Source: Fidelibacterota bacterium
GTDB taxonomy: Bacteria; Fidelibacterota; Marinisomatia; Marinisomatales; TCS55
DNA length: 64,000 nucleotides
Assembly: GCA_002724735.1 (NCBI GenBank)
Contig: PBPT01000082.1
Span: forward strand, 41,016 to 105,015
Direction of reading: 5' to 3'
Under the pieces are notes generated by a model. It was given only the letters and a program-made list of their open reading frames with translations, was not told the origin of the DNA and did not search any database. Position numbers and translations under genes: made by a program. Each line of letters starts with the position of its first letter. Within the stretch, counting starts at the first letter, position 1. This document shows positions 7,544 through 27,888 of the stretch, piece by piece.

Positions 7544-7551
7544 TTACTTGT

Positions 7552-11258: not shown

Positions 11259-11650
11259 TGAAAGAACCTACAAGATTAGAAGGACATGTACCCAAAGGTT
11301 GGGGCTATGAATTAATATGGGCAACTAACGACAAGTACTGTGGTAAGATAATGGTATTTGAAAAAGTAGGTGCAAAGTTTAGTATGCATTTTCACAAAGA
11401 AAAAGAAGAAACATGGTTTGTTAATAGCGGAAAATTTATCGTAAGATGGATTGATACTTCTAATGCTACGTTACACGAGAAAGAATTAAAAGAAGGTGAT
11501 GTTTGGCATAATCCTCCTTTACAACCTCATCAGTTAGAATGTTTAGAACCTATGAGTTCAGTAACTGAAGTTAGTACAGCTGATTCAGTAGAAGATAATT
11601 ACAGACTTATTCCAGGCGACAGTCAAAGTAAAGAAACAGAAAATGGTTGA
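11249..11650 (+). CDS. Cupin-fold protein, phosphomannose-isomerase type II C-terminal-like
   Basis: 133 aa. PKGWGYELIWATNDKYCGKIMVFEKVGAKFSMHFHKEKEETWFVNSGKF follows the WG..Y..K.i.v..G..lS.Q.H..r.E.W.v..G pattern of PMI-type cupins. Confidence 0.55.
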   Translation: MELMKEPTRLEGHVPKGWGYELIWATNDKYCGKIMVFEKVGAKFSMHFHKEKEETWFVNSGKFIVRWIDTSNATLHEKELKEGDVWHNPPLQPHQLECLEPMSSVTEVSTADSVEDNYRLIPGDSQSKETENG

Positions 11651-12254
11651 AATAAGTTGGAGTGACGACTATGATCCTAGTCCTAATTATATCGCACCTA
11701 AGTGTGTAGTAGGATTAGATAGAGATGGTGTAATCAACAAAGATCTAGGCACATATTGTTACAAAATAAAAGACTTTGAACCTATTCCTGGTAGCATAGA
11801 AGCTATTGCTAAACTACGCAGATTAGGTCATAAGATTACAATTATCACAAATCAAGGTGGTATTGAAAAAGGATTATTTACGCAAGAAGATGTAGATAAC
11901 GTACATAAGCATTTGTTTGAATTACTAGGTAAAGCTGGTTGCACTAGTATAGACGGAATCTACTATAGTGCTAGTAGCAGAAAAAATGATATGTACGCGA
12001 AGCCTAATATAGGAATGTTCAAACGATGTGAAAAAGAAATACCACACGTAAAGTTTGCACAAGGTTTTTATGTTGGTGACAAAATTACTGATTTAAAGGC
12101 CGCAATGAAAATAGGTGCTATTCCTATCTTAGTACGCACCGGATATGGTGAAGAAACAGAAAAATTATTAAATAGATTTACTTACAAAGCAATAAAAAAG
12201 CGTACCAAAGTTTTTGATACGCTTTCTGACTTTGTAAAAAGTTTAGAAAATTAA
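11643..12254 (+). CDS. gmhB: D-glycero-D-manno-heptose 1,7-bisphosphate phosphatase-like HAD-IIIA phosphatase
   Basis: 203 aa. VGLDRDGVINKD (DxDG motif), ITNQGGIEKGLFT, KPNIGMF and YVGDKITDLKAAMKIGA..LVRTGYG parallel E. coli GmhB. The Zn-binding CxH..C.C insert appears to be absent. Confidence 0.75.
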   Translation: MVEISWSDDYDPSPNYIAPKCVVGLDRDGVINKDLGTYCYKIKDFEPIPGSIEAIAKLRRLGHKITIITNQGGIEKGLFTQEDVDNVHKHLFELLGKAGCTSIDGIYYSASSRKNDMYAKPNIGMFKRCEKEIPHVKFAQGFYVGDKITDLKAAMKIGAIPILVRTGYGEETEKLLNRFTYKAIKKRTKVFDTLSDFVKSLEN

Positions 12255-15200: not shown

Positions 15201-18200
15201 ACTGTTATGTTATCATATGAACTAAAGTTTCTTCTTATATTAAATGTAGCATTAGTGCCTGTGTTTGGAACATTAGTACCTGCTACACTATTATATGGTC
15301 CTGTTGGTTGTGAGGCTGTACCTGCAATGGTTATAGCAGTTATCGCTCCAGCGGCTTCATTACTTACTTGTGTAATAGTAATTGTTGCATCATTAGCAGG
15401 ACTTGCGCCTCTTAAATTTGAACCTGGTATTACTAACTGTTGTCCAACAGCATATCCTGAACCTGGAGTTTGTATACCATCTGTAAGGTCAACAGTATAG
15501 TCTCCTTCTCCAAGTTCAACTCTAAATGTAGCACCTGTTCCTTGTCTATTTGAGCCTACAACTCCTAATGCTGTCCTTCCATTCACTGCTGTACCAGTAG
15601 TAGTATATGTTAAGATTGCACCATTTGCATCAACACTAGCTATGGTACCTGTAATATCGTTTATTGGAGAACTTCCACCTAAACCAGTGGCATTACCTGC
15701 AATAGTAAATGTTTCTCCTACAAGATAGTTTAATCCGCCGCCACCTGTAACCTGATAGCTTGCTCCTGTGACTTGTACTGTAAATGTAGCATTTCCGTCA
15801 CCTCCTGCGGTATTAGAAGTAAATGCAACATTTGTAAATGTTTCGTCTCTTTGCGGAGCATTTGTTGTAGTAAATGCAATGCCAGTAATCCTTCCAGCTA
15901 ATCCCACAGAACCAACATCGAATGTTATAGCACTTGCTCCACCGTTACCTAAAACACTATCTGCAATAGTCACAGTTGATCCCTGAGCATTACCTAATCC
16001 AGGAGTAGCTATAGTAATATCTTCTAAATCAATATCTCCTGCTGTTGATATAGTGCCTACGTCCATTGTAAAAGCGGCTGCACCGCCACCTCCTAGCGAA
16101 CTATCTTGAATTGTAATTGTGTCGCTTACTGAGTGTCCTGATCCTATTGTTTTTACTACTACGCTAAGAACAGCACCAATAGCGTTGACCGTGATGTCAA
16201 ATGTTCCAACTACTCCTGATCCAGTACTTGTACCGCTAACATTAGTATATGTGCCAGCCGTTCTTGATGCATCACTAGCACCAAAGTTAGTCATAGTTTT
16301 ATGGCCGCCTGCTGGCTGTACTATAATGTCAAATGTTGCTCCACCTCCGCCTGAAGAGGCAGTAACACCTGAGTATGTACCTGGAGTTCTATTTGTAGGT
16401 GTTTGTGTTAAGTTAGTTAAACTTAGGATTTCACCTCCTGAGCTAACTGTATTAACTGTAACATAGTTGTTATGTGTTGCACTACCTCCTGTAGGTTGAA
16501 TTACATCACCTCCTAATACTATGCTATCACCAACGACATATCCTGATCCGCCATTATTTATAGTAACACCAGTATAAGTTGTGTTTAAATATTCAACATT
16601 AAAGCTTGCATTTGTGCCTGCATTACCATACGGATTATGAGAAAGTGGTGTTAATATAGCAAATCCATTAAAGCTTAATCCGCTTATTGTTGCTGTATTA
16701 ATGTCACCGTCACTATTAACAGAAGTTACAAATATTGTTGCATCATTAGCTGGTGTTTCTCCGCCTAGCAAATTACCTAGGACTTTAATAGTATCTCCTG
16801 CTACATAACCGTATCCGCCATTTGCTACACTATTCAATACGTAAGTGTTACTTGAATCTCCTGAAGGAGATATATTAAAAGTAGCATCTGCTCCATTAGC
16901 TGATACATTTGAACCGCTTATTTCAGTATAGTTTACAACATTACCAATTCTTGTATTAACAAAATTACCGCTGAACTGTACTCCTAGTCCTGAAGCACCA
17001 GTACCTATTGTTTGCACATATATTGCTGTACCGTCTCCTCTATCAACAGCCATATTTGCAGCCAAACCTGCTGTGTCTGTAACTTGCAAAGTATCAGTGT
17101 TTGGTGCCGCATTTGCTGTTGTAGTCAAAGTTAAAAATGTTCCGCCGCCTGCACTTGTATCAATAATTTGTGTTACTTGTGAACCAGCAGGGATACTAGC
17201 TTGTGTTAATGGAGAACCTACTTCTGGTGCCGCGCCGTCAAACGGTAAAATAGTGCTTCCACTTGCTACAGCTAATTGTGTCGTAAAACTTCCCGATGAA
17301 CCATTACTAGCTATAGTAAATGTTGGCTGACTTATTGATGCTCCAGTATAAAATCCAGCTTTGCGTAATTGACAGTATGTTGTAACTAAAACTTCACCGT
17401 TATTTGTTCCTACTTTGGCCTTTGCATAATAGTTAAAAGTTTTATCACCCGTTACGCTATTAATTACAAATGAGCCTTCTGCTCTAGCGGCTCCAACAAC
17501 ACTATCTTCTAATGCTTTAATTGTAATAGGTTGTCCGTCTTCAAATCCGTGTGCAACTACTGTAGTGACAGTAATTAAACTAGCACCTATGCCTCCAGTA
17601 CCTGTACTTGCGTCAGTCGTTACATTTTGTACTGCTGTATTTGTTGCAGGTATTTCATAAACACTTGGATACCCTCTAAGTGTACCTATAGCTGACCATT
17701 TAGTAGGCTGTAACCCATATTCGAAGTCAGCGTCAAGCATACTAAGAGGATGGGCAATACGCATACGCTCAATTGCATCAGTACCAAAATCATATGGTCT
17801 TACTTGTACAACACTTTTCCCATTTTCTACTTTTTCTACAAAAACTTGTAGATGATCAGTTGCGTCATGAGAGGTAGTATTGTAATTAAAATATATTCTT
17901 GTAATTGCATCAGTTGTTTGTAAGTATGTTCCAAAATCAGAATCATAACCTTTGGTAATTAATTTTGCTGTACCACCGTTTTCTGCATTAGAAAAGTTAT
18001 ATATGATTTCATTTTTTGTTGTGTTAGTAACAAGTAATAATTCGTCTAAACCCCAACGACCTTGGACTTTAATATTTCCTACTCCTGTATCTACTAAAAC
18101 AGGGAGCTGATCTAATCCTAAATTTATTACATTTATGACTATTCCAGCAAGTTCGTTTATCCTAACTATAGCACCAGCTTCTGCATTGTCGCCAGTTGTA

Positions 18201-18628
18201 TCTGTAGTTTGTATTACCTGTGTTTGATTACCAGAATATGCACTATTTGTAAATAAAAAGTCTCTAATTATATCTCTAATTTTTTCATATGTTTTTACTT
18301 CAGCTTGTCTATCACCATCGAATTGCGATACAGTACCTTCCCAAAAATCACTAGCGACTTTCCTTGTTTCTTCATTTCCGCCATATCTTAAGTCCCATGC
18401 CCAAGCATCGATAACTTTTCCTATTTCTGTTTCCCACTGTGTTACACTATAAGTATATCCTGAAAATCCTGTGGCTCCTGCTGTAACTTGCGCCTCTATC
18501 CATGCAACCGCTTCTTTTTGTAAGTAATATTTGTTCCCCCAAAGCAAAGCATATGCATTTGGATATACGTATCCTGTTGCACTCATTCCTGGCTTAAATA
18601 CGTAATTTTTTATTTGTGTCTTTGCCAT
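12251..18628 (-). CDS. Giant virion (baseplate/fibre-associated) structural protein with internal repeat modules
   Basis: 2125 aa, rich in G/T/S/A/N. At least 7 modules of type GG(S/Y)GY.VGD.I.I.G..L.G..P.ND.T (e.g. NGGSGYVVGDSIVLGG, NGGYGYVAGDTIKVLGNLLGGETPANDATIFV, NGGSGYKVGDRINIPGTTLDGASP). Lies in a late-gene block. Confidence 0.6.
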   Translation of the reverse strand: MAKTQIKNYVFKPGMSATGYVYPNAYALLWGNKYYLQKEAVAWIEAQVTAGATGFSGYTYSVTQWETEIGKVIDAWAWDLRYGGNEETRKVASDFWEGTVSQFDGDRQAEVKTYEKIRDIIRDFLFTNSAYSGNQTQVIQTTDTTGDNAEAGAIVRINELAGIVINVINLGLDQLPVLVDTGVGNIKVQGRWGLDELLLVTNTTKNEIIYNFSNAENGGTAKLITKGYDSDFGTYLQTTDAITRIYFNYNTTSHDATDHLQVFVEKVENGKSVVQVRPYDFGTDAIERMRIAHPLSMLDADFEYGLQPTKWSAIGTLRGYPSVYEIPATNTAVQNVTTDASTGTGGIGASLITVTTVVAHGFEDGQPITIKALEDSVVGAARAEGSFVINSVTGDKTFNYYAKAKVGTNNGEVLVTTYCQLRKAGFYTGASISQPTFTIASNGSSGSFTTQLAVASGSTILPFDGAAPEVGSPLTQASIPAGSQVTQIIDTSAGGGTFLTLTTTANAAPNTDTLQVTDTAGLAANMAVDRGDGTAIYVQTIGTGASGLGVQFSGNFVNTRIGNVVNYTEISGSNVSANGADATFNISPSGDSSNTYVLNSVANGGYGYVAGDTIKVLGNLLGGETPANDATIFVTSVNSDGDINTATISGLSFNGFAILTPLSHNPYGNAGTNASFNVEYLNTTYTGVTINNGGSGYVVGDSIVLGGDVIQPTGGSATHNNYVTVNTVSSGGEILSLTNLTQTPTNRTPGTYSGVTASSGGGGATFDIIVQPAGGHKTMTNFGASDASRTAGTYTNVSGTSTGSGVVGTFDITVNAIGAVLSVVVKTIGSGHSVSDTITIQDSSLGGGGAAAFTMDVGTISTAGDIDLEDITIATPGLGNAQGSTVTIADSVLGNGGASAITFDVGSVGLAGRITGIAFTTTNAPQRDETFTNVAFTSNTAGGDGNATFTVQVTGASYQVTGGGGLNYLVGETFTIAGNATGLGGSSPINDITGTIASVDANGAILTYTTTGTAVNGRTALGVVGSNRQGTGATFRVELGEGDYTVDLTDGIQTPGSGYAVGQQLVIPGSNLRGASPANDATITITQVSNEAAGAITAITIAGTASQPTGPYNSVAGTNVPNTGTNATFNIRRNFSSYDNITVFNGGSGYKVGDRINIPGTTLDGASPLHDLELYVDAVGGDIITAVTGTYTIANPGTNIDIISTVTMSEATTGTIAVNQTVSYAALATLNVSFPNAHGLVPGDTFIVSITSDDGGSNNHALAGGSFFATEVPTSNTLRYQARTTGAIDVSVSPVSGIVYPRPDSFFVHRPYDGGVQLGTGGPQHGAQAIRQSKKYIRYQSGKGIMYTTGALFAPSYDLQSVVAEDIEVDSLITVVTDDNDHGVQVGGVIRLLGIETEGYNSGPDTAVGEEFDYTVVSVVDERTFKVRSKRRLGATTAVLGFGAQMSVVSWHGATVRSGIFDDQNGILWEFDGTQISAVQRTGTKQIAGTIALSQDSNLVTGTNTRFRDQLTAGDRIIIKGMTHVVTNVTNDTSCTITPDWRGVIDITGAKVALVRDKKAKQSEFNLDKLDGTGPSGYHMDIAKMQMIGIQYTWYGAGFIDWMVRGADGNFVFAHRMRNSNVNTEAFMRSGNLPVRYEVTNEGPPGKLKTAMTNNQTTIELEDSSFFPYQATVYIDNEVMTYTANNKATNTLTGVTRNASLLTFQAGAERSYTGGPATTHDARTGVIIISQTITPLISHWGSAFLTDGGFDEDRGYIFSYAETGIAVSTTKQTAFMMRLAPSVSNAITGDLGERELLNRAQLLLMGLEVTSESGSGGIVVEGVLNPQNYPLNPSDVNWSGLSGVAQGGQPSFAQIASGGGVTWTTGESATTANMTSVAALTAQVNSGTYSNWPGSRYVEVSGSDYRAVFGSNDINFVLGKSITGTHIPANTTIVDGYIPSSNNWGYFRLSKNTTGSIPGGSIDHYTIAYNAALVNKNYAYLTTASVDSAGTVVGTAITGISGGGTFPANTYVSNITSTTWASYTFYEISFNNAFTGTLALGSGTIEATFEQPPFAQPGETVFSFIAVPGERSTLDLAQLKELTNTPLGGRGTFPNGPDVLAINVYKVTGSDINSNIIIKWGEAQA

Positions 18629-18634
18629 ATTCTT

Positions 18635-19507
18635 TTAAATCCCAAATGCTATCGCAAACGCTGTTGATGTTTCATCTACATATTTTTTGTTTGGCACTGC
18701 TGTTACTCCTGATACTGCGCCACTTAGTGTTGCGGTTGTAAAAGATGCTGTTGATGGTGTAGTTGCACCTATTGTTGTATTATCAATTGTACTGTTATTT
18801 ATAGGTCCTACTATTCTTCCGTTTACACTATCGACTAACAAAGTACTGTTATCTGAATATACAGAGCCATTAAGATCTCCTGTTACTCCGCCAGTAGCTG
18901 ATATCATACTAGCAACACTCATTGTACCGCCAATATTTGCATTTCCTACTACGCCCAAACCTCCGGATACTTTTAAAGCACCAGTTGAAACACTTGTACT
19001 TTGTGTAGTATTTGTGATACTAACTTCACTAAAGTTTCTTGCTTGATCTAAAACTGTAATTACACCATACACTGTACCATCTACATTACCATAATACAAT
19101 GTATCTGGTGCAGATAAAGGAATAGTCCATGTTAGTCTTCCTGAGCTTTTTCCTTGTGCAGAGTCTCCAACTGTACTATCACTGTGCCTTAAACCACTAC
19201 TATAAACTGCTGTTGATCCAGGTGTAACACTACTAAAGATTTTAAAAACTAAAGTTGTAAATGCTAAATCTATTGTAGATGTTTGATTTCTATATACGGT
19301 TATGCCAGGTTGATTATTTAATTGGCCATCAAATCTGAAATTGCCTGCGGCTTCCACAAAGTCGTAATCTGCCGCTAATCCTGCTTCAGAATTATCTACA
19401 GATAAAGTTAAAGTACTAGCAGATATATTTCCGTTAGCGTCTACTGTAAAATTAGGGCTCTTGAACCCGTATTCTGATCTAAAAGGCGTATTAACTGTCG
19501 TTGGCAT
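18635..19507 (-). CDS. Tail-fibre-like structural protein
   Basis: 290 aa, S/T/G/N-rich. C-terminal ..VTAVPNKKYVDETSTAF.. carries the xKKYVD motif that is also present in the 320-aa fibre-like ORF (LTNKKYVDDAITNAF). Confidence 0.45.
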   Translation of the reverse strand: MPTTVNTPFRSEYGFKSPNFTVDANGNISASTLTLSVDNSEAGLAADYDFVEAAGNFRFDGQLNNQPGITVYRNQTSTIDLAFTTLVFKIFSSVTPGSTAVYSSGLRHSDSTVGDSAQGKSSGRLTWTIPLSAPDTLYYGNVDGTVYGVITVLDQARNFSEVSITNTTQSTSVSTGALKVSGGLGVVGNANIGGTMSVASMISATGGVTGDLNGSVYSDNSTLLVDSVNGRIVGPINNSTIDNTTIGATTPSTASFTTATLSGAVSGVTAVPNKKYVDETSTAFAIAFGI

Positions 19508-19972: not shown

Positions 19973-21778
19973 TCAGTTATTTACTATGATTAGTTTTCCA
20001 AATTCTGGCAAGTATAGATACTCAATATCACTGGTAGCAAGTGTGCGTATTGCATCATCAAGGGTTTCTACTAATGGTTCACCGCCTAAGTTAAAACTTG
20101 TGTTAAAAATAATTGGAACGTTTGTTTTATCTTTAAATGCTTTAATAATATCGTAATAATGTGGATTTTGATCTCTACTTACAGTTTGAATGCGACAAGT
20201 TCCGTCTACATGGATAATTGCAGGAATTTTTTCTTCTACACCTTCTTGACAATTTACAGCATACATCATTGTAGGACTGCTATCCATTCCTCGTAAATCA
20301 AACCAATCATGTGCATCTTCTTCTAGTATACTGCCAGCAAAAGGCCTGAAATATTCTCTACGTTTTACTGCATTTACAAAATCTTTTCCGTCTTTATAAG
20401 TAGGGTCAAACATCAAGCTTCTATTACCTAATGCACGTGGTCCATTTTCTGATCGCCCTTGAAAACAAGCAACAATATTTTTTGTAGTCATAAGTTCGAC
20501 TACATCTTCATGATTTGCATCTTTAATTTCAGCATCATATTTTTCAACTGTGCTATAAATTTCTTGTTCTGAATATTCATATTTAGGACCTAAAAATACG
20601 TTATCTGCTCTTGCATTAACTTTTGTATCTTGGGATACTTTATAATGCTGAAGTAATGCCGCACCCATTGCTGTGCCTGCATCATTAGAAATAGGCTCTA
20701 CATAAATTTCAATGCCTTCATCTTTTAAAGCTTCTAAGTAATGATAATTAGCTACACAGTTTAAACCGTATCCTCCGCTTATCACAACTTTTTTACATCT
20801 TGATTTTTCAACAGCATGTCTAATTAGCTTTACTACTGCTTCTTGTGTTTCTTGTTGTACAGCATATGCTAAGTCTCTTCTATTTTCTAAGTAAGTAACA
20901 TCTTCCTGATCAAATGCTAATTCTTCATTATCTAACTCTGCATACATTCCTTTGTTAACAACAGCTCCATTAGGATATCTTGGTACTATTAAACTTCTAC
21001 TAGTTGTTGGAATTGGTAGTGTTACTTCGTTATCCATAATAGCAGGAATATTATCGTTAGGTTTACCGTAGGGTGAAAGGCCCATAGTTTTACCTGCTTC
21101 AATAGCTTGAAAGCCACAGTATTCAGTAACAGCTTCATATGCTTTAACAATTCCTGCACGATCATGAATAAAAGCAGTATAATTTGTATTAGGCTCGCCC
21201 CAATTAGTGGCATCCCAATTATCAACTACTGCACCTGGTATAGCTTCTCTTGCACCTATACTTTTGTGTAGAGTTTTAAATTTATCAGGATACTGACATT
21301 TGTAAATACTTTCTGTTTCCCAAATAGTCATACTATTGCCCTCGTGGGTCAATGGAAAAAACGTACCAGCTCCATCAACAATAACCGCTACAGCTTCGTC
21401 AAATCCTGATCTATAAAAAGCCATTGCCGCATGCATTTTGTGATGATACATTGCTACATCAATTACTTCTGCTCTGCTTGATGGATCTTGTGTATGCAAT
21501 AAACCTATTTTTCTAGCTAAACCTGTGTAAACATCTTCACCAGAGTAATCTAATTTACCAGCAGTTTCTTCTAATCCAGTAGTATGTGCAATTACTAAGT
21601 AATCTAATCTGTCAGTATATTCTTTTATTTTAAGAATACTAGCCAATGGTCCGCCATCGTATTTTAATCTAGTAAGTCTTTCTTCTTCGATACTAAAAAC
21701 AATTTTGCCATCTTTTAACAAACATACACCTGCGTTATGTCCTCTAGCTATTCCTGCGATCCATATTGGTTTAGTCAT
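19973..21778 (-). CDS. Carbamoyltransferase, NodU/CmcH family
   Basis: 601 aa. N-terminal ASKHA-like region (IAGIARGHNAGVCLLKDGKIVFSIEEERLTRLK, ISGGYGLNCVAN). C-terminal blocks GPRALGNRSLMFDP, REYFRPFAGSILEE, HVDGTCRIQTV and FNTSFNLGGEPLV are typical of the family. Confidence 0.85.
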   Translation of the reverse strand: MTKPIWIAGIARGHNAGVCLLKDGKIVFSIEEERLTRLKYDGGPLASILKIKEYTDRLDYLVIAHTTGLEETAGKLDYSGEDVYTGLARKIGLLHTQDPSSRAEVIDVAMYHHKMHAAMAFYRSGFDEAVAVIVDGAGTFFPLTHEGNSMTIWETESIYKCQYPDKFKTLHKSIGAREAIPGAVVDNWDATNWGEPNTNYTAFIHDRAGIVKAYEAVTEYCGFQAIEAGKTMGLSPYGKPNDNIPAIMDNEVTLPIPTTSRSLIVPRYPNGAVVNKGMYAELDNEELAFDQEDVTYLENRRDLAYAVQQETQEAVVKLIRHAVEKSRCKKVVISGGYGLNCVANYHYLEALKDEGIEIYVEPISNDAGTAMGAALLQHYKVSQDTKVNARADNVFLGPKYEYSEQEIYSTVEKYDAEIKDANHEDVVELMTTKNIVACFQGRSENGPRALGNRSLMFDPTYKDGKDFVNAVKRREYFRPFAGSILEEDAHDWFDLRGMDSSPTMMYAVNCQEGVEEKIPAIIHVDGTCRIQTVSRDQNPHYYDIIKAFKDKTNVPIIFNTSFNLGGEPLVETLDDAIRTLATSDIEYLYLPEFGKLIIVNN

Positions 21779-22747
21779 TTAATATCCTGTTGTTTCCATT
21801 AAGTTTATATCATTTTCAAAACAATAATTTCTTACTTGCTCTCTAAAGGTAAACAAATCTATGTCCGGCACTGATTTATAAATGCTGTTTATGCCTTTGA
21901 TTATACTACTTTGTTTATCATTAAATTTAATATTTTTCTTCAAAGCTGGCAACAATATTTCCAATAGCCACGAAGCCGCGCCGTCTGTAGAAGGATGAGG
22001 ATCCCACCAATAAGGTTGCTGTTTCTTTGTAGAAGCATTTGTGTTACCAAACTTGTATACACGATTAGAGTCGGTTAAGAATTGTTCCTTTCCTAATTTT
22101 TGTCCTTCCCAAACATGATTACCAATAGGTTTTAACCAATACTCTTTATTATCATTCCATATCATGTTTACATAATGTTCAAATTCAGGATATCTTTCTA
22201 GTAGATTACCTTCTGCATCAGTTGATTCTCCGTCGCCATTAAAATTTAAAAAATCTGCACCTAATTTTTGAAAATCTCCTATACTAGTCATAAACCATGT
22301 ACAGCCTACAGATTTTAAAAGTGCTTGAGCAAGTGTTATTGCATTTAGTGAATACATAACGTATGTCTGCTCACTAAAAAAATGATCTAACCATACTCTG
22401 TTATATATAGATGTATTATGCATGTTAAACATAGAACCTTTAGTTAACCAAGCCGATTCTTTATTTTTTTCCGGAAGTCCAGAATCTATCCAAGTCTTAC
22501 TAGTTTTTTTGAATAAGTGATAATCATTTCTTAAATGGGAAGACCATTGTACAATTATTGTATCGTCTTTTGTAAATTTGTTTTTTGAATGGCATTCAGC
22601 TAATCTCTGTGCAATACCAAGATTGCCTATACCAGGAAGCCCCCAGTTTTCTGCCTTGTCATAATCTGTATCGTAGCATAGTATTGTTGCCCACGTCGGC
22701 CAATCAACTAGAGAGAAACTACAACCGAATGTGAAAAGTCTAGCCAA
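21779..22747 (-). CDS. SGNH/GDSL-like hydrolase-fold protein (tentative)
   Basis: 322 aa. N-terminal FTFGCSFS resembles block I (GDS), GIGNLG resembles block III, and WWDPHPSTDGAASW resembles block V (DxxHP). Confidence 0.4.
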   Translation of the reverse strand: MARLFTFGCSFSLVDWPTWATILCYDTDYDKAENWGLPGIGNLGIAQRLAECHSKNKFTKDDTIIVQWSSHLRNDYHLFKKTSKTWIDSGLPEKNKESAWLTKGSMFNMHNTSIYNRVWLDHFFSEQTYVMYSLNAITLAQALLKSVGCTWFMTSIGDFQKLGADFLNFNGDGESTDAEGNLLERYPEFEHYVNMIWNDNKEYWLKPIGNHVWEGQKLGKEQFLTDSNRVYKFGNTNASTKKQQPYWWDPHPSTDGAASWLLEILLPALKKNIKFNDKQSSIIKGINSIYKSVPDIDLFTFREQVRNYCFENDINLMETTGY

Positions 22748-22749
22748 GA

Positions 22750-23685
22750 TTACTCGCCTAAATGCTTATCGATTTCTTCTACAATATGGGTTTCTATTTT
22801 GTCATTCATTTGCATAATGCCTTCGTTTACTCTGTCTGAAAATTCATCTACAGTCACTCTAATCGGGCTGTATACTCTTGAAAGTTCGCCCATGTCCATT
22901 ATATTAAATGATTCACAATTTGGATAGGAAGTATTAATAGGAAATGTACTTCCAATGACAACCGTGGACGGAATACCTGTTGCATAAGCAAGATGTTGTC
23001 CTACACTATCACAGCCCACAAAGTAATCAGCTTCGGCTATTAATGCTGTCCAAGTTCTCAAATCAGTTCCTTTAGGTACAGCAATTGGTCTGTCTACACC
23101 ATGTTCTTTAAAGTCAATAGCTATTTCTCCCATAAAAATTATACCATAGTTTTTAGAAAGTGCCTTAACCATGTTGACTAAATTTGTAGGCTCAATACTT
23201 CTACCGCTAAAATCTGTTAGCATGCCGCCTTCTTCAATAATACCTTTACCAAAAGGTTGAATAACAATTATTTTTTCTCTTTCGGTTTTTTCTCTTACTT
23301 CTTTTATTACTGTAGAAGCCCGCATAAGTTCACCTTTACTAAGCTTAATAGTGGGCTTAGGTAAGTCTCTTACACCTTGATTGTTGATTGCAATATCATA
23401 TGCTTGTGATAAACTGCATTTTTGATTATAGTATTCCCAAACCCTGTATGGTTCTGGACTAAGCATATTCATATCTTTGAGCTTATCTTCGAATAAATTT
23501 TTGTGCCAATGATCATATGCTTTTGCATGTAGCACAGGATGTCCTTTAAAAAAATCAGAACCTCCCTCACATACAACTAAAAAGTTGTCATCTGGATTTT
23601 CTTCGTGAAACTTTTCAAGTGCAGGAATCGAGCAAACAACTCTTCCTGCTCCACCATTAATAAAAATTGCAGTGCTTCTTGCCAT
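22750..23685 (-). CDS. Glycosyltransferase family 9 (heptosyltransferase-like)
   Basis: 311 aa. FINGGAGRVVCSIPALEKFHEENPDDNFLVVCEGG and ALIAEADYFVGCDSVGQHLAYATGIPSTVVIGSTFP parallel WaaC/WaaF blocks (..SMGDVLHTLPAL.., ..FVVSVDTGLSHLTAALDRPNITVYGPTDP..). Confidence 0.7.
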   Translation of the reverse strand: MARSTAIFINGGAGRVVCSIPALEKFHEENPDDNFLVVCEGGSDFFKGHPVLHAKAYDHWHKNLFEDKLKDMNMLSPEPYRVWEYYNQKCSLSQAYDIAINNQGVRDLPKPTIKLSKGELMRASTVIKEVREKTEREKIIVIQPFGKGIIEEGGMLTDFSGRSIEPTNLVNMVKALSKNYGIIFMGEIAIDFKEHGVDRPIAVPKGTDLRTWTALIAEADYFVGCDSVGQHLAYATGIPSTVVIGSTFPINTSYPNCESFNIMDMGELSRVYSPIRVTVDEFSDRVNEGIMQMNDKIETHIVEEIDKHLGE

Positions 23686-23775: not shown

Positions 23776-24819
23776 TTATTCTACTGCTGTTGATAATGCT
23801 GGATTATAAGTTTTTTCAGCTTCTTCAAATGCATGTGCATCTTCTGTATCTGTTGCTACACTATTAGCTTTAGTAACTTTTTTCCAGCTTGTAGGTCTTG
23901 TAAACAATGGTGATTCTCTCCATTTTACTTTCCAAGGATCAACTTGTTTAACTTTAGTAAGAGTAACTTTTGCTCCTGTTCCGCTTCCGTTTGTTACAAA
24001 GAAACATTCTGTGTAAACTGCGGCTTCTGGATGATATAATGCTCTCTTATTTTCAACACTAAACTCTGTAATTGCTCCTGAACCACTTACTTTAGTAACA
24101 GTAAGTTTCACTTCGTCAACTACTTGTGTGTTTTTATATTTAGGATCTTGTACTAATAACACATCTCCGACACTATAACCAGAACCACCTGTTGGCACTG
24201 TAGCTGTCCATGCAACACCAACTGTTTCAGTAATATCTCTTAGATATGTTCTATATTCTTGTATTTTTGTAATTAATCCTGAAGGCAAATCTTCACTGTA
24301 AAGTCTATCACTGTTCTGTAACTGGTTGTCTCTAAAAGCAACTTTCTCTTCCCATGTCATAATAGGTTTTCTCCAAGGTAACGGAGTTACCCATTGCTCT
24401 GCTTGAGGAGAATACTCAATTTCTGTAATTTCGTAAGTATGATTAGGTACGGGATACTTATCTCTTACATATGGTGTATCTTGTCCTGGTACATCTTCTT
24501 CTATGTCAGGAATTGAATGGGGATCAACGCCTTCAAATAAGCCAGCTATAATACATTCAGTATTAGAATCTTCAGGTCTTACTTCTACCATATAATGATC
24601 ACCTTGTGGAAATGGTATCTCGCCATTAAATAATTGCTGACCTACTTCTCCTCCTGATTCACAACGTATAAGTTTATTTGTAATACTATCAACCCATACA
24701 TATACTTTATCAGGACCTTTGTAAATTACTCTTGCTTTTTTACCTAGGTCGTTAGTTTGGTGATATATATCATCAGGTAAATCGTAAGTAAATTCTTTTG
24801 TTATTTCATTTATAGCCAT
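23776..24819 (-). CDS. Tail-fibre-assembly-chaperone-like protein with one GSGY module (paralog of 26391..27062)
   Basis: 347 aa. Shares ..YKGPDKVYVWVD.. and ..FRDNQLQNSDRLYSEDLP....IQEYRTYLRDITE.. with the 223-aa ORF. The second block matches the R..LL..sD......w..YRq.LRD pattern of phage tail assembly chaperone domains. Also contains TGGSGYSVGDVLLV. Confidence 0.5.
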   Translation of the reverse strand: MAINEITKEFTYDLPDDIYHQTNDLGKKARVIYKGPDKVYVWVDSITNKLIRCESGGEVGQQLFNGEIPFPQGDHYMVEVRPEDSNTECIIAGLFEGVDPHSIPDIEEDVPGQDTPYVRDKYPVPNHTYEITEIEYSPQAEQWVTPLPWRKPIMTWEEKVAFRDNQLQNSDRLYSEDLPSGLITKIQEYRTYLRDITETVGVAWTATVPTGGSGYSVGDVLLVQDPKYKNTQVVDEVKLTVTKVSGSGAITEFSVENKRALYHPEAAVYTECFFVTNGSGTGAKVTLTKVKQVDPWKVKWRESPLFTRPTSWKKVTKANSVATDTEDAHAFEEAEKTYNPALSTAVE

Positions 24820-24828: not shown

Positions 24829-25629
24829 CTACCAGTATACCACATAAATCATTCCGCCGCCACCAACGCCGCCACATCTACATGTACCGTCATTAGTCCA
24901 GCCTGTCATTCCTCCACCGCCTGGGTGCATGCCCATCATCATACATGCTTGTCCACAACAACTAGAGTATGATCCACAAATGCCACCATGGCAACTGTTA
25001 CAGCATGTTGAAGTACCTTGTGGTCTAGGTCCTGGTGTACCGTATGCACTACCTACATGTTGCCAACCTGCTTCGATACAAAATTGGCTACTACGATATG
25101 CACCTGTTACACTAGTTTGACATTCTAATGTGGTTATTCCTGAACCACTTATATAATTGTTTGAACAACATGCACACATAGAACAACAAGAATAACAGTT
25201 TGTAGCTAAATGACACCTTGTATATCTAGCAGAGCATAATCCGCCTTCTACGCACATACACCAAGTTCCGTCACCATTACAAACATATGACGAACATCCG
25301 TGGAATCCTGCACAACAACTCATATTAGCACCAGATGTACCAGCTGAACACATTCTAATTTGATCGCCTGCAGAAACATCAGTTTCGACCATCATATAGC
25401 CGCCACCGCCGCCACCGCCGCCTTGTGTACAACAACAGCTATAGCCACCGCCTGCACCGCCGCTCCATACTTCAAATACTGCCTTTGTTACACCTGCTGG
25501 CACTGTCCAAAGATAACAACATCCTCCGTTGTGTGGTAACCATTTATTTGTATTTTGTATATAAAATTCTTGTGGTTTGATAACACCGCCTGTTTCGTAA
25601 CCGTATATTAAATTTGTTAATTGACTCAT
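24829..25629 (-). CDS. Cys/Gly-rich protein C (glycine-rich fibre-tip-like domain)
   Basis: 266 aa with 31 Cys (my count), including CC/CCC clusters and a G8 run. Shares HNGGCCYLWTVPAGVTKAVFEVWSGGAGGG..CCC, ..QIRMCSAG.. and C-terminal GGGGMIYVVYW with its two paralogs. Confidence 0.7.
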   Translation of the reverse strand: MSQLTNLIYGYETGGVIKPQEFYIQNTNKWLPHNGGCCYLWTVPAGVTKAVFEVWSGGAGGGYSCCCTQGGGGGGGGYMMVETDVSAGDQIRMCSAGTSGANMSCCAGFHGCSSYVCNGDGTWCMCVEGGLCSARYTRCHLATNCYSCCSMCACCSNNYISGSGITTLECQTSVTGAYRSSQFCIEAGWQHVGSAYGTPGPRPQGTSTCCNSCHGGICGSYSSCCGQACMMMGMHPGGGGMTGWTNDGTCRCGGVGGGGMIYVVYW

Positions 25630-25639: not shown

Positions 25640-26389
25640 TTACGATGCTACGTGCCATTCTACTATAATTAAACCTCCGGCTCCTGCCGCACCACAACCG
25701 CAATAGCTGTTATGACTTGACGCCGTTCCGCCACCGCTGCCTGGCCAATAAGCATATCCTTGTTGTCCACAACCACAGCAATAACCTGAACATGCGTCTC
25801 TTGCTGGACGGAAAAAATCTCCTGTAAATGGTGCTTGTGGTGCCCAGTTCCATGCTGTTCCTGAACAAAATGCTGTACCTTTAAAAGCACCGGACATTCC
25901 GCATATTCCAAATCCGCCACACCATGAGCCGCATTCATATGCTGAACAACCCATATAGCTGTTTCCAATTGGACCCCAGCAATAATTACATCCTACTTTA
26001 CCTGCACTTGCACAAATAACATTAGCGGCTTCTGTTACACCATAAGCATAACTAGGATATCCTGGACATCCAGTGTTTGTATTTGCACAAGTAGTTGAAC
26101 CGCCTGCACAAAATCTGTACTGCTGTCCTGCTACAGTGTTAATAATTTTTCTTGCATAGCTTCCTGCTCCGCCTGGAATACCAAAGAAACAGCAACAGTT
26201 ACCTGCGCCGCCTCCGCCGCCGCCCCACATTTCCACTGCAAACCATGTAACGCCAGTTGGTACTGTCCATAAACAACAGCATCCGCCATTTTCCATATTG
26301 TCTACACTTGTGTGATAGACTACCATTGAATCAACAGCTACGGTGCCGCCACCGCCTCCATATTGTAACATTGTTTTCAGTGCTGACAT
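25640..26389 (-). CDS. Cys/Gly-rich protein B
   Basis: 249 aa with 23 Cys. ENGGCCCLWTVPTGVTWFAVEMWGGGGGGAGNCCC, QYRFCAGGS, and C-terminal GAGGLIIVEW. Confidence 0.7.
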   Translation of the reverse strand: MSALKTMLQYGGGGGTVAVDSMVVYHTSVDNMENGGCCCLWTVPTGVTWFAVEMWGGGGGGAGNCCCFFGIPGGAGSYARKIINTVAGQQYRFCAGGSTTCANTNTGCPGYPSYAYGVTEAANVICASAGKVGCNYCWGPIGNSYMGCSAYECGSWCGGFGICGMSGAFKGTAFCSGTAWNWAPQAPFTGDFFRPARDACSGYCCGCGQQGYAYWPGSGGGTASSHNSYCGCGAAGAGGLIIVEWHVAS

Positions 26390-26390: not shown

Positions 26391-27062
26391 TTATTCTGCC
26401 TTCGTATCTGGTGCTAACGGAAATTCAACTTTCCAAGCTTCTACTTCGTCTGATTCACCTTTTTTATAAACTGTTGGTAGATCCCTAAGTGCTTGTCTGT
26501 AAGTAACCCATGGTGTTTTTACAGCATCGGGCATATCTGGTGAAATTTTACCGTCGGAAGCTTCTAGCTGTGAATCTCTTTGTAATATAATGTCATCCCA
26601 ATCAACTGGTGAAGTTTTGTAACCTGCTGACCATGTTTTTGCATCTAAATCATAAACACATTCGCTTTCGTCGACGTATGTTTCTCCAATTTCTGGCTTA
26701 CCATTATATTTTATGGTGTAATCACCGTATGTTTCTGTAACTGTTGTTTGATCATTTGTTACAATAGTTGAATCAGCAACTCTAAAAATTGCCATCATTA
26801 AAGGATCATCTGCAAGAGTTACTTCAACTCTTGTAGTACCTACTGGTACAGGAACATCTGCTCCTTCATCTCTTTCTGTTAGTTCTCCTGGACTTCTAAT
26901 TCTTTTGCCCTTGTTGTCACCGTCTGTATCAACAAATACATAAACCTTGTCTGGTCCATTGTATGTAGCAGAAGCTGTTAGTCCATCACTATCACTAGAA
27001 TCAAACATCTTGTTTGGCAATTTGTAATCAAATGTTTTACTAGCTATTGTATTTTCTGGCAT
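26391..27062 (-). CDS. Tail-fibre-assembly-chaperone-like protein (paralog of 23776..24819)
   Basis: 223 aa. ..YNGPDKVYVFVD.. and ..LQRDSQLEASDGKISPDMPDAVKTPWVTYRQALRDLP... Confidence 0.5.
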   Translation of the reverse strand: MPENTIASKTFDYKLPNKMFDSSDSDGLTASATYNGPDKVYVFVDTDGDNKGKRIRSPGELTERDEGADVPVPVGTTRVEVTLADDPLMMAIFRVADSTIVTNDQTTVTETYGDYTIKYNGKPEIGETYVDESECVYDLDAKTWSAGYKTSPVDWDDIILQRDSQLEASDGKISPDMPDAVKTPWVTYRQALRDLPTVYKKGESDEVEAWKVEFPLAPDTKAE

Positions 27063-27081: not shown

Positions 27082-27888
27082 TTAATTATAGTATACATAC
27101 ACTTGGCCACCGCCACCTGGTTGTCCATCACAGTGTGAACCTCCGCAAGCTATTCCGCTTGTTCCTGGTCCTCCAGGAAATTTATTTCCTGTAAATGGAT
27201 CACCACTTGTACACATTACATATCGTCCTTGTTGATACCAACAAGAACATAAATCTTCGTTCATTTGTCCAGGCTGATTAAATCCTGAATGGGTCCAATA
27301 ATAATACTGCGTATGACAGTATGTATTTCTTGTACCATGCCCACCAATACCTGGCATAATTATTCCTTTGTTAGCATCTGCAACATAACCTTGTGTAGCA
27401 CTAGATGAACCGCCTTGTATTCTTCCAAAACAGCAAGTATATGCATTGTATGGGCTCTGGAACCCTGGCTGTTGTGATCCTTCATCACCTCCACATGCAC
27501 AAATTATAGTTGCGGCCGCTGTTACATCATAAACATATGATGGACAACCATAACAGCTAGTATTTGATTTATTATATGCACAACCAGTTGACGATCCTGC
27601 ACAAATTCTATATTGACAACCTGCTTGGGTATCCATTTGATACCAAACATAAGAACCACTAGTTCCTTGATAAGCTTCAAAACTACAACAACATCCATCA
27701 TTACCTGATGAACCACCGCCCCATAGTTTAAACACAAGACTTGTTATACCTGCAGGCACAGTCCACAAACAACAGCAACCTCCGTTGGCGGCACTTGTAT
27801 GCGATGTATTCCATACTCTAAGTCTTTGAGGTATGTTACCTACGCTTTGTGGTCCTATATCGGCCAGTAGTGTTGTTAAAGCAGTCAT
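27082..27888 (-). CDS. Cys/Gly-rich protein A
   Basis: 268 aa with 21 Cys. ANGGCCCLWTVPAGITSLVFKLWGGGSSGNDGCCC, QYRICAGSS, and C-terminal GGGGQVYVYYN. Confidence 0.7.
   Translation of the reverse strand: MTALTTLLADIGPQSVGNIPQRLRVWNTSHTSAANGGCCCLWTVPAGITSLVFKLWGGGSSGNDGCCCSFEAYQGTSGSYVWYQMDTQAGCQYRICAGSSTGCAYNKSNTSCYGCPSYVYDVTAAATIICACGGDEGSQQPGFQSPYNAYTCCFGRIQGGSSSATQGYVADANKGIIMPGIGGHGTRNTYCHTQYYYWTHSGFNQPGQMNEDLCSCWYQQGRYVMCTSGDPFTGNKFPGGPGTSGIACGGSHCDGQPGGGGQVYVYYN

Follow-up and report, generated by a model that had tools for sequence, protein, structure and literature searches.

What is a set of sugar-tailoring enzymes doing in the middle of a phage tail-fibre block? The window that we analysed, a 64,000-nucleotide stretch of contig PBPT01000082.1, carries on its minus strand, at 19973-23685, three open reading frames back to back, with gaps of 2 nt and 0 nt. 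The first-pass annotation placed a glycan-tailoring trio here, embedded in the tail-fibre block; the reading frames lie at exactly those coordinates, and the flanking genes encode tail-fibre, chaperone or structural proteins. The genes of this block, in the direction of transcription, are:

27082..27888, minus strand: Gly/Cys-rich protein, paralog 3 (PHROG 4205, E 7e-20)
26391..27062, minus strand: p223, tail fibre assembly chaperone-like (Phage_tail_APC E 2e-8, above cutoff; PHROG 4912, E 2e-10)
25640..26389, minus strand: Gly/Cys-rich protein, paralog 2
24829..25629, minus strand: Gly/Cys-rich protein, paralog 1, adhesin-like, a candidate acceptor or partner
23776..24819, minus strand: p347, tail-fibre-assembly-chaperone-like (Phage_tail_APC E 2e-4, sub-threshold; PHROG 9740, 4912)
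22750..23685, minus strand: trio gene 1, GT9-fold glycosyltransferase-like protein, 311 aa (PHROG 8954)
21779..22747, minus strand: SGNH-fold hydrolase or acyltransferase-like protein, 322 aa, with a helical C-terminal extension
19973..21778, minus strand: NodU/CmcH/TobZ-family O-carbamoyltransferase (CT), 601 aa
19547..19948, minus strand: p133, gene 1 of the downstream fibre operon
18635..19507, minus strand: p290, fibre-connector-like (PHROG 677, E 6e-7)
12251..18628, minus strand: S/T/G-rich fibre or structural protein, 2125 aa, with repeated GGSGYxVGD modules

The S-CAM1 homolog of the 2125-aa protein is annotated as a “virion structural protein”. The genome backbone is not cyanophage-like, a point absent from the first-pass annotation. 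The capsid in the window resembles those of jumbo phages, not cyanophages.

The carbamoyltransferase call is secured by Pfam (Carbam_trans_N, E 1e-29; Carbam_trans_C, E 6e-58; both above threshold) and by the PDB relatives 7xb6, NovN, GdmN and TobZ (E 1e-42 to 3e-59). The protein shares the two-domain Kae1-like/YrdC-like architecture and the HHxxH motif (residues 111-115) with the natural-product O-carbamoyltransferases TobZ, NovN, GdmN, NodU and CmcH. Unlike these, it is encoded by a phage, in a tail-fibre module where it constantly accompanies the GT9-like gene. The SGNH protein has no match in Pfam, PHROG or NCBIfam and is recognised by fold only: its AF2 model (pLDDT 91) matches SGNH hydrolases (1deo, 8e-5; TesA). 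Among 73 homologs, S10, G39/G41 and H251 never vary, N74 is found in 58 and an acid at position 249 in all 73; acid and His are spaced as D-x-H instead of D-x-x-H. Its TTG start agrees with the family N-terminus. The GT9 call stood at the level of the fold and not beyond it. The match to PF01075 lies just below threshold (20.9 bits, cutoff 22) and covers 47 residues only, and the top PDB matches of the AF2 model (pLDDT 83) are 3tov (6e-11), WaaF (2e-8), WaaC (3e-8) and TibC (4rap, 3e-7).

None of the three proteins has transmembrane or signal segments, in support of the proposal that the GT9-like enzyme would act as a soluble protein in the cytoplasm. We found no promoter motifs of their own upstream of the CT (0/73) or SGNH (0/44) genes; hence, the three genes form one operon, a single transcription unit that is usually late.

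How constant is this arrangement? Every informative related locus shows it again, far above chance. However, the loci, though many, are not independent, since a single vertically inherited module accounts for much of the synteny. The conserved core is the GT9+CT pair and not the trio, which the first-pass annotation did not say. The pair is almost invariant in at least 567 viral contigs. The two genes are adjacent in 79 of 83 GT9-centred loci (the exceptions lie on truncated contigs), in 73/73 informative loci centred on the Gly-rich genes, and in 10/10 MAG contigs. The SGNH gene is an optional insert between them: ~58 of 93 loci have it, ~49 as a single copy and 9 as two copies, and cultured phages lack it. 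The slot of the pair is always in the fibre/adhesin block, and is kept when the trio is inverted as a unit; p347, directly upstream, is syntenic in 73 of 83 loci. There is also strict co-occurrence of the GT9+CT unit with the Gly/Cys-rich adhesin-like proteins; the cultured phages that encode these proteins all carry the GT9-like gene as well (9/9 records). In Vibrio and Aeromonas phages the GT9-like gene stands alone among structural genes, with neither CT nor heptose genes. Distant homologs show the fibre association again, independently, in unrelated phages: the gene lies directly upstream of a Phage_Tail_Tip protein in Vibrio K479 and in L090, and comes after a fibre-like protein in Aeromonas HJ05. 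In L089 it adjoins a DGR and the DGR target.

Linkage to fibre genes would be equally expected of a receptor-masking enzyme: mask and receptor specificity must match, so mask genes travel with fibre genes. Modification of the host surface was the alternative raised by the first-pass annotation; it is weakened by our analysis and is a live rival, though an unlikely one. A carbamoylated, acyl-tailored heptose would be added at the cytoplasmic face to an envelope glycan precursor, whether of LPS, O-antigen or another lipid-linked glycan. The receptor would be masked, preventing superinfection and the loss of progeny on debris. This is the published reading of cyanophage “LPS genes”, and JGI labels homologs as ADP-heptose:LPS heptosyltransferase. 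The distant homologs count against it, since they still adjoin tail-tip genes in the absence of CT and heptose genes.

Which sugar might be transferred? A plus-strand operon converges on the fibre genes:

7982..8010, plus strand: perfect sigma70-type promoter TTGACA-17-TATAAT, ending 6 nt before the HldE ATG
8017..9156, plus strand: HldE-like bifunctional heptose-7-P kinase / heptose-1-P adenylyltransferase (NF008454, E 2e-86; PfkB and CTP_transf_like domains)
9153..9761, plus strand: 202-aa protein with a weak 2OG-Fe(II) oxygenase-like match (PF13759, E 0.011)
9758..10579, plus strand: HldD-like SDR, related to ADP-glyceromanno-heptose 6-epimerase (TIGR02197, E 6e-66, below the equivalog cutoff)
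10566..11258, plus strand: 2OG-Fe(II) oxygenase (PF13759, E 5e-14)
11249..11650, plus strand: small cupin protein, annotated “cysteine dioxygenase” in cyanophages
11643..12254, plus strand: GmhB-like HAD phosphatase, heptose 1,7-bisphosphate 7-phosphatase (NF006506, E 4e-39)
12195..12227, minus strand: hairpin (15-bp stem, then a T-run) where the heptose and fibre operons converge

Across 80 HldE loci, the HldD-like gene is present in 73, the cupin gene in 62 and the 202-aa oxygenase-like protein, a variable member, in 12. GmhA was looked for and not found. A sugar-tailoring or isomerase role is possible for the cupin. The suggestion that the trio is linked to the phage ADP-heptose operon (8.0-12.3 kb) is borne out by S-CAM1, P-SSM2 and S-SSM7, in which the GT9-like gene, CT and heptose genes form one contiguous cassette, and by the 80 HldE-centred loci, each of which, given enough flank, leads into CT/GT9 or the fibre block. 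In these loci the heptose operon is convergent with and adjacent to CT-GT9, or only fibre genes lie between. Nonetheless, ADP-heptose is not certain as the donor, because 11 loci have the trio with no heptose operon in the usual slot. The expectation that the heptose may also be carbamoylated has a precedent in the Pseudomonas LPS core, where the NodU-type carbamoyltransferase WapO (PA5005) carbamoylates heptose to give 7-O-carbamoyl-heptose. WapO works with GT9 enzymes, and the phage unit pairs the same families. The same combination also speaks for a product on the host surface.

Promoter classes bear on timing. The window contains four perfect sigma70 sites where 0.05 would be expected. A sigma70 consensus with at most one mismatch lies at a fixed distance in 39 of 51 distinct HldE upstream regions, and NATAAATA in none of the 51; the conserved promoter upholds the “early” label given to the heptose operon. 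Before GT9, the late-type (T4-late) motif NATAAATA occurs in 26 of 69 lineages and a sigma70-like promoter in 6 of 69. In relatives, NATAAATA is also found 17-25 nt upstream of p133 (39/54). A clean late motif is lacking ahead of the window's own GT9 gene, where TATAAATA overlaps the start codon ATG and TATAAATC sits near -68. Late expression would be late for exclusion and so argues against host-surface remodelling, whereas the six lineages with a sigma70-type promoter argue for it. Together, the late motif, the slot fixed even under inversion and the distant homologs favour the fibre-related role first suggested for the trio.

Is the GT9-like protein an LPS heptosyltransferase? It shares with WaaC and WaaF the GT-B fold (GT9 structures are its best PDB matches), the donor-side D-[ST]-x-x-x-H motif and genetic coupling to ADP-heptose synthesis, and all characterised GT9 enzymes outside the BAHT group work on LPS. 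Its signature is [D/N]GGxGR15 ... E78-P-Y ... QPxG ... RS ... D226-S-x-x-x-H231. E78-P-Y, N101, D158, R162-S163, D226 and H231 are near-invariant across 516 representative clusters, and the donor motif is retained in at least 138 of 142 representatives. However, the GT9 catalytic Asp (D13 in WaaC) is Arg in 109 of 113 representatives. The N-domain is ~50-60 aa shorter than in WaaC/WaaF and its median charge is -0.2, against +6 to +10 in WaaC, WaaF and WaaU. NCBIfam equivalogs for LPS heptosyltransferases score ~17 bits against cutoffs of 170-467. We therefore reject membership of WaaC/WaaF, and each of these differences, the missing Asp included, weighs against LPS as the target. HMMER profiles reached the 516 representative clusters only, with no PDB matches, and did not connect the protein with the LPS-enzyme clades. 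The protein belongs to a compact clade that is encoded by phages only, in tail-fibre modules.

The LPS of marine Synechococcus WH8102, which the carrier phage Sf-FS3 infects, lacks both heptose and Kdo, as does that of the hosts of several cyanophage carriers, and this disfavours a heptosylated LPS product; for the window phage's own host, LPS with heptose is conceivable. The Gly-rich beta1-alpha1 loop and Arg15 could bind a phosphate-bearing, lipid-linked acceptor.

A relation to the bacterial autotransporter heptosyltransferases (BAHT; TibC, AAH) had also been suggested. There are real likenesses: the GT9-related fold, the soluble, cytoplasmic state that is predicted for the phage protein, and the ADP-heptose donor that it would use. 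A BAHT gene adjoins the large repetitive surface or adhesion protein that is its substrate, and the phage gene adjoins a similar protein. However, the phage protein lacks the ~95-aa N-terminal extension of BAHT and has no counterpart of the Cys-rich iron-finger insertion of TibC (HGCYGC...C...C). Asp110 is not conserved, Arg standing in place of the catalytic Asp. Its neighbours are fibres or adhesins, not autotransporters, and in the marine phage clade it is always accompanied by a carbamoyltransferase. The relation thus fails beyond the fold, and the BAHT versus WaaC/WaaF comparison recommended in the first-pass annotation places the protein in neither group.

What does loss of the catalytic Asp mean? 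It could indicate other chemistry, a phosphate-bearing non-protein acceptor, or a non-catalytic role. The last would fit a reading with no macromolecular transferase, which we consider improbable: either a pseudoenzyme, acting as a fibre assembly factor or minor virion component that binds nucleotide sugar, or a soluble carbamoylated heptose metabolite. Loss of the canonical base across the whole clade is in its favour, as are the Vibrio and Aeromonas phages with a solitary GT9-like gene. The nearest solved CT relatives (NovN, GdmN and TobZ) act on small molecules, and in some lineages the cassette also takes in a halogenase gene and several 2OG oxygenase genes and then resembles a natural-product cluster. 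Nonetheless, an active enzyme whose acceptor is conserved would be expected to show just such a near-invariant donor motif and polar N-domain residues. The dedicated donor pathway and the strict pairing with a CT that itself looks active also argue for catalysis, and a small-molecule product leaves the fixed fibre-block slot without a reason.

Could the acceptor be phage DNA? DNA-glycosylating phage GT-B enzymes are well known from reviews, and a contact with phosphate is conceivable for Arg15 and the Gly-rich loop. The sugar, added in the manner of T4 glucosyltransferases, would then be carbamoylated to evade restriction. We regard this as highly improbable. The fold matches are to GT9 and not to DNA glucosyltransferases, and the unit has no linked genes for hydroxymethyl-pyrimidines or related base modifications. 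It is confined to the fibre block, frequently downstream of a late motif, and does not occur in modules for replication or nucleotide metabolism.

We return to modification of the virion. Phage glycosyltransferases are known to glycosylate virions in mycobacteriophages (Freeman 2023); these systems act on the capsid and tail tube, and their genes lie among structural genes, as here. The unit described here, a putative virion-glycosylation system, differs from mycobacteriophage and giant-virus systems in its GT families and sugars, and its neighbours are host-recognition proteins, not capsid or tube proteins. Glycosylation of giant-virus fibrils combines virus-encoded nucleotide-sugar synthesis with glycosyltransferases. 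To our knowledge, heptose or carbamoyl decoration has not been described for virions of either group.

The best-supported reading, which we hold tentatively and a little short of even confidence, is that the unit modifies a virion fibre or adhesin with a modified sugar. We infer the following order of steps. The early, sigma70-driven operon (HldE, GmhB, HldD-like protein, cupin and 2OG oxygenases) would supply a pool of ADP-heptose or tailored heptose. Later, the GT9-like enzyme, soluble in the cytoplasm, would place heptose there on a virion protein that recognises the host. The identity of this acceptor is the most tentative part: it may be a tail-fibre protein or the neighbouring Gly/Cys-rich, adhesin-like proteins, and we found no virion proteomes of phages carrying the GT9-like gene. 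The CT would then O-carbamoylate the sugar, consuming carbamoyl phosphate and ATP, and the SGNH enzyme would provide an optional third tailoring in which an acyl group is added or removed.

Three consecutive minus-strand genes lie among the tail-fibre-type genes of the window, at exactly the coordinates called in the first-pass annotation:

22750-23685, minus strand, GT9-like protein, 311 aa
21779-22747, minus strand, SGNH-fold protein, 322 aa, TTG start
19973-21778, minus strand, carbamoyltransferase (CT), 601 aa

The intergenic gaps are 2 nt and 0 nt. All three enzyme families named in that annotation hold, those of the GT9-like and SGNH proteins at the level of fold only. Sequence comparison places the 601-aa protein firmly among O-carbamoyltransferases of the NodU/CmcH/TobZ type: it scores 104.5 bits against Pfam Carbam_trans_N (cutoff 24) and 195.5 bits against Carbam_trans_C (cutoff 27), matches PHROG 1601 (E 3e-167) and the solved relatives 7xb6 (3e-59), NovN (6e-52), GdmN (1e-47) and TobZ (1.5e-42), and has the HHxxH metal motif (“yHHkmH”, residues 110-115). 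For the other two proteins, phmmer and hmmsearch comparisons of sequences and profiles with PDB sequences gave only noise, and hence a fold search was needed.

The SGNH protein has zero matches in Pfam, NCBIfam, PHROG and PDB sequences, and tblastn against cultured phages found no match; it has 360 metagenomic homologs. Its AF2 model (pLDDT 91) predicts an SGNH alpha/beta fold. Foldseek matches in the PDB include 1deo (rhamnogalacturonan acetylesterase, 8e-5), TesA and 3bzw, and those in BFVD are many uncharacterised phage SGNH-domain proteins (best 1.5e-15). Among 73 homologs, S10 (within F-G-C-S), G39, G41 and H251 are invariant, and position 74 is Asn in 58 and His in 14. All 73 have an acidic residue (D/E) at position 249, but in this sequence alignment its spacing to the His is D-x-H and not D-x-x-H. 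The gene is tandemly duplicated in the comparison loci L052 (10943-12777), L060, L064, L070, L072 and L073, where the paralogs are ~38% identical and both retain the F-G-C-S block.

The AF2 model of the GT9-like protein (pLDDT 83) predicts a GT-B fold closest to GT9 structures. The top Foldseek matches in the PDB are all GT9: 3tov (6e-11), WaaF (1psw, 2e-8), WaaC (2gt1, 3e-8) and TibC (4rap, 3e-7). The match to Pfam PF01075 is 20.9 bits (cutoff 22) and covers only the 47 residues from 207 to 253, and the family profile recovered no GT9 structure from the PDB. A profile search run exhaustively over 1.84 billion representatives recovered no more than 516 clusters; thus, HMMER makes no bridge from the phage clade to canonical GT9. 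A search seeded with the Aeromonas phage homolog returned only 15 relatives. We considered whether the longer GT9-like proteins of S-CAM1, P-SSM2 and S-SSM7 have an additional domain in place of SGNH; their extra residues form a low-complexity P/Q/S/K tail.

The N-terminal G-D motif that carries the GT9 catalytic base was not found in the phage family. With both hhalign and MAFFT, the phage segment that starts at residue 11, GGAGRVVCSIPAL, aligns to the WaaC segment that starts at residue 9, SSMGDVLHTLPAL, and the catalytic Asp of WaaC, WaaF, WaaQ, WaaU and TibC (WaaC Asp13, TibC Asp110) aligns to phage Arg15. This position is invariant in A2/A3, is Arg in 109 and Lys in 2 of 113 representatives, and is also Arg in the family members from Vibrio and Aeromonas phages, at 27% identity. 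The donor-binding motif is kept (D226 138/142, S227 138/142, H231 141/141; compare D261...H266 of WaaC), which indicates that the donor site is conserved. The clade signature reads [D/N]-G-G-x-G-R, E78-P-Y (at least 110/113), Q-P-x-G, D158 and R162-S163, followed by D226-S-x-x-x-H231, G-x-T, N251, Y254, R276 and N287. Glu78 is a plausible replacement base, and the Gly-rich loop with its Arg would suit an acceptor that is anionic or differs in some other way. The Asp-to-Arg swap may reflect a different nucleophile, such as a Cys thiolate or a residue hydroxylated by an enzyme, or else an acceptor with negative charge. Alternatively, the GT9-like protein could be a pseudoenzyme or assembly factor, or the cassette could make a small-molecule product; we regard this as quite unlikely.

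Does this clade belong with either known type of heptosyltransferase? LPS heptosyltransferases of the WaaC/WaaF/WaaQ type are expected to have a basic N-terminal domain that accepts anionic Kdo-lipid A, whereas the N-domain of the phage protein is neutral to acidic and, on the acceptor side, ~50-60 aa shorter than that of WaaC. Net N-domain charge, used here only as a sequence proxy, has a median of -0.2 in the phage family (range -6.1 to +1.8), compared with +8.1 for WaaC, +5.8 for WaaF and +10.1 for WaaU. The protein also fails the NCBIfam equivalogs for LPS heptosyltransferases by a wide margin (TIGR02201, 17.2 bits against a cutoff of 170; NF007742, 16.4 against 467). Bacterial autotransporter heptosyltransferases (BAHTs) such as TibC and AAH form dodecamers that O-heptosylate Ser in beta-helix repeats, and the first-pass annotation had drawn an analogy with them. 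As family membership, the analogy fails. In alignment, the phage protein has no counterpart of the extension formed by TibC residues 1-95 and lacks the Cys-rich iron finger (HGCYGC...C...C), as well as the catalytic Asp. Furthermore, the TibC gene adjoins that of its autotransporter substrate, tibA, whereas the phage gene has fibre, chaperone and Gly/Cys-rich proteins as neighbours. The short, non-basic N-domain, Arg15 and the missing TibC features together place the protein in a distinct phage clade that is neither WaaC/WaaF-type nor BAHT-type.

The GT9-like gene is widespread, with relatives in at least 567 IMG/VR contigs and more than 5000 protein clusters at 90% identity. We probed 83 loci with the window's own proteins. 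CT is next to GT9 in 79 of them and is missing only at contig ends; SGNH is present in 60, the fibre-chaperone-like protein p347 in 73, and the giant fibre fib2125 in 72. The canonical order is p223 (fibre-chaperone-like), gly249 and gly266 (Gly/Cys-rich adhesin-like paralogs), p347, GT9, [SGNH], CT, p133 (first gene of the downstream fibre operon), p290 (fibre-connector-like) and fibre. One lineage has the trio inverted en bloc in the same slot, and in the S-CAM1/P-SSM2 type the heptose genes directly follow GT9 and CT, with SGNH absent. Among 93 loci with both genes, the slot between GT9 and CT is empty in 33, and contains one SGNH gene in ~49, two SGNH paralogs in 9, and small 2OG-oxygenase-like genes in a few. 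This variability indicates that the conserved core is the GT9+CT pair and that SGNH is an accessory tailoring gene.

The GT9-like clade is phage-restricted. A scan of 185,579 species-representative genomes in GTDB gave 10 matches, all on short MAG contigs from unrelated phyla. On all 10 contigs (L251-L260) the phage module is present and GT9 adjoins CT, so cellular carriage is ruled out and the matches represent mis-binned phage DNA. Contigs with the module have been binned with Methanobacteriota/MGII archaea, Chitinophagales, Flavobacteriales, Verrucomicrobiales and Gammaproteobacteria. Hence, NCBI names such as “Marinimicrobia” and “Methylophagaceae” are unreliable as host indicators for these proteins.

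The genes around the trio are of the tail-fibre type. They include p223 and p347, both with Phage_tail_APC matches, p290, three Gly/Cys-rich paralogs, a 2125-aa repetitive structural protein and, further on, two ~1600-aa tail-fibre proteins. The features of this region and the capsid gene are:

12251-18628, minus strand, 2125-aa repetitive structural protein (giant fibre)
23776-24819, minus strand, p347
24829-25629, 25640-26389 and 27082-27888, minus strand, Gly/Cys-rich paralogs, ~250-268 aa, with CCC and GGGG runs
44961-46136, minus strand, major capsid protein, 391 aa

A G-G-S/Y-G-Y-x-V-G-D-x-I module occurs in many copies in the 2125-aa protein and once in p347.

The Gly/Cys-rich proteins have a sub-threshold match to Pfam Gly_rich_2, match PHROG 4205, and are flanked by fibre-chaperone-like genes; it is plausible that they are tip adhesins and candidate acceptors. 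A single-sequence scan for their relatives found one locus, and an alignment was used instead. Among 50,697 cultured-phage records, nine matched, and all nine are GT9-like carriers; in viral contigs sampled by the Gly/Cys-rich family, GT9 lies within 10 kb in 73/73 informative loci. This association arises in part because the whole module is inherited together.

Megablast of the region, and tblastn of p133, found no match in cultured phages. Among cultured phages, the GT9-like and CT genes have their closest counterparts in the cyanomyoviruses S-CAM1, S-CAM3, S-SSM7 and P-SSM2 (48-61% identity). These matches suggested a Kyanoviridae cyanophage, an assignment that the capsid search ruled out. 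The capsid protein is closest to those of jumbo myoviruses (64-69% identity; Sinorhizobium Phosso 69%, Vibrio 2.275.O 67%, PA5oct 65%, plus Yersinia, Erwinia and Serratia jumbo phages), with cyanophages below 60%. The window covers a T4-like structural region (gp15, portal, gp46/47, gp55) of a phage from an uncultured marine lineage. A jumbo-like capsid together with a module shared with Kyanoviridae indicates that the fibre/glycan module is common to at least two genome backbones, and implies that it has been exchanged between lineages.

Distant homologs of the GT9-like gene also recur beside host-recognition proteins. Vibrio phage K479 has the homolog flanked by a 1952-aa fibre-like protein on one side and a 1643-aa Phage_Tail_Tip protein on the other; in L090, a 77-kb contig, it is directly upstream of a Phage_Tail_Tip protein; and in Aeromonas phage HJ05 its neighbours are a fibre-like protein before it and the tail sheath gene after it. 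The 150-kb T4-like contig L089 (266-9500) has a diversity-generating retroelement (bAvd, reverse transcriptase and a target with an Lcl_C lectin fold), then a 2OG oxygenase, three GT32-like transferases, the GT9-like homolog, a sulfotransferase and APS kinase, and then, directly downstream, the neck genes gp13, gp14 and gp15. This looks like a sulfated-glycan cluster beside a hypervariable receptor-binding gene. No CT or heptose genes were found near the homolog in K479, L090, HJ05 or L089.

Next to the fibre block, and convergent with it, lies the heptose operon (8017-12254, plus strand). It encodes HldE (E 2e-86; 290 bits, equivalog cutoff 521), an HldD-like SDR (E 6e-66; 223 bits, cutoff 275) and GmhB (E 4e-39; 134 bits, cutoff 178), together with a cupin and two 2OG-Fe(II) oxygenases, one with a clear match and the other with a weak one. 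A SIS-type GmhA was not found within the window, and the operon therefore does not encode the full four-enzyme pathway (GmhA, HldE, GmhB, HldD) to ADP-L-glycero-beta-D-manno-heptose. We considered the operon protein p202 as the missing GmhA; it has only a weak 2OG-oxygenase-like match. The cyanophage “phosphoheptose isomerase” (T4-GC 306; L002:13021-13365) has only weak HAD-like matches. The small cupin (11249-11650, plus strand), annotated in cyanophages as “cysteine dioxygenase”, is conserved, and might act as a ketose-aldose isomerase or a heptose-tailoring epimerase.

The 80 viral loci sampled by HldE alone have the order gp15, NUDIX, HldE, (p202), HldD, (2OG), cupin, GmhB. GmhB is followed by convergent CT-GT9 directly or by fibre-p290-p133-CT, and every locus with enough flank reaches that block. 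Together with the contiguous cassettes of cyanophages, this survey shows that heptose-nucleotide synthesis and the GT9/CT pair are strongly coupled in these genomes. There are exceptions: 11 trio-bearing loci have gp15 and NUDIX without a heptose operon in the slot. ADP-heptose is a candidate donor for the GT9-like enzyme on the basis of genomic linkage to the HldE, GmhB and HldD-like genes only. The NUDIX hydrolase gene (7480-7992, plus strand, in the window) lies between gp15 and HldE in 76 of the 80 loci, and stays beside gp15 in lineages without the operon. Some lineages have flavin-dependent tryptophan-halogenase-like genes (PF04820, E 1e-80 to 2e-90) in or beside the heptose/GT9/CT cassette (L100:11136-12572 and L100:18966-20447; S-SSM7, L003:14164-15651), and these lineages have extra small 2OG-oxygenase-like genes between GT9 and CT.

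The operon and the trio differ in their promoters. Four perfect sigma70 sites occur in the window, where chance would give 0.05, and each immediately precedes a gene:

4120-4148, minus strand, dNMP kinase
7982-8010, plus strand, HldE
62607-62635, minus strand, gp47-like
63516-63544, minus strand, gp55 region

Only 6 nt separate the end of the HldE site (TTGACA-17-TATAAT) from the ATG, so that the transcript may be leaderless or nearly so; the position of the site is conserved in most related loci.

Promoter motifs in distinct upstream sequences (sigma70 consensus allowing at most one mismatch; T4-late-type motif NATAAATA)
HldE: sigma70 39/51, at a fixed 5-6 nt from the ATG; NATAAATA 0/51
GT9: sigma70 6/69; NATAAATA 26/69
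CT: sigma70 1/73, 115 nt upstream; NATAAATA 0/73
SGNH: sigma70 0/44; NATAAATA 0/44
p133 (fibre operon): sigma70 0/54; NATAAATA 39/54, at a fixed 17-25 nt

These counts suggest that donor synthesis is early, and that the trio is one GT9-led transcription unit that is often late. For the window's own GT9 gene, the late evidence is weak: TATAAATC lies at about -68, and the copy of TATAAATA at 23685-23692 is unusable as a promoter because it overlaps the start codon. TATAAATA is not above chance in the window (6 sites, 10 expected). Judged by synteny and by the motif counts across loci, the module combines a glycosyltransferase gene in a structural block with predicted late co-expression, as expected for phage virion glycosylation. 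A hairpin with a 15-bp stem and T-run (12195-12227) lies where the heptose operon (end 12254) overlaps the giant fibre gene (end 12251), and is probably a bidirectional terminator.

What is the function of the module? We propose that the phage operon would synthesise ADP-heptose early in infection and that, late and in the cytoplasm, the GT9-like enzyme would move heptose onto a fibre or adhesin protein, the putative acceptor; CT would then O-carbamoylate the heptose, and SGNH would carry out acyl tailoring. We put the likelihood of this sequence of events a little short of even. In genomic logic, the closest known system is virus-encoded virion glycosylation. The closest chemistry is found in the Pseudomonas inner core, whose synthesis uses GT9 heptosyltransferases together with a carbamoyltransferase. 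WaaC/WaaF plus WapO are a chemical precedent for an alternative explanation, in which a modified sugar masks a host envelope glycan. Masking likewise predicts linkage to fibre genes, and is the published view of these genes. However, LPS of marine Synechococcus WH8102 and CC9311 is described as having neither heptose nor Kdo (Snyder 2009, as cited in PMC4515613), and the carrier phage Sf-FS3 was isolated on WH8102. With such host LPS, it would make sense for a phage to encode a heptose pathway itself, and a canonical inner-core role in these hosts becomes less likely. Overall, we consider masking unlikely, though less so than a pseudoenzyme or small-molecule role; DNA glycosylation is very improbable. 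Published cyanophage virion proteomes (S-SM1, S-PM2, Syn9) are from phages without the GT9-like gene.

A broader and more tentative form of our proposal, which we rate as possible but clearly below an even chance, is that marine myoviruses of at least two unrelated backbones share a dedicated system for heptosylation, then carbamoylation and sometimes acyl tailoring, of the receptor-binding apparatus. The acceptors would be Gly/Cys-rich proteins or giant fibres, the transferase would be a phage-only offshoot of GT9 with an Asp-to-Arg swap, and the early operon would supply the donor to make up for the lack of heptose synthesis in hosts such as marine Synechococcus.

Since 2005, heptose and carbamoyltransferase genes in cyanophages have been described as “LPS genes” of uncertain function, and have even been suggested to be stuffer DNA. 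Our literature search found no paper on the GT9-like/CT pair, the Asp-to-Arg clade, the fixed place in the fibre module, the promoter split or virion heptosylation. Our analysis recasts the “LPS genes” as a discrete, very widespread, phage-only module. Its centre is a GT9-like/CT pair among the host-recognition genes, and its promoters point to early synthesis of the donor and, often, to late expression of the transferase. For glycosyltransferases, the Asp-to-Arg GT9 clade would represent new chemistry. If a fibre or adhesin is the target, glycans on the receptor-binding apparatus would add a new factor to what shapes the host range of marine phages, the stability of their particles and their evasion of recognition by hosts or grazers. 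If dedicated heptosylation of the receptor-binding apparatus is correct, the system, which is abundant in the ocean, would provide the first known case of a heptosylated virion and of tail-fibre glycosylation supplied by a dedicated donor pathway.
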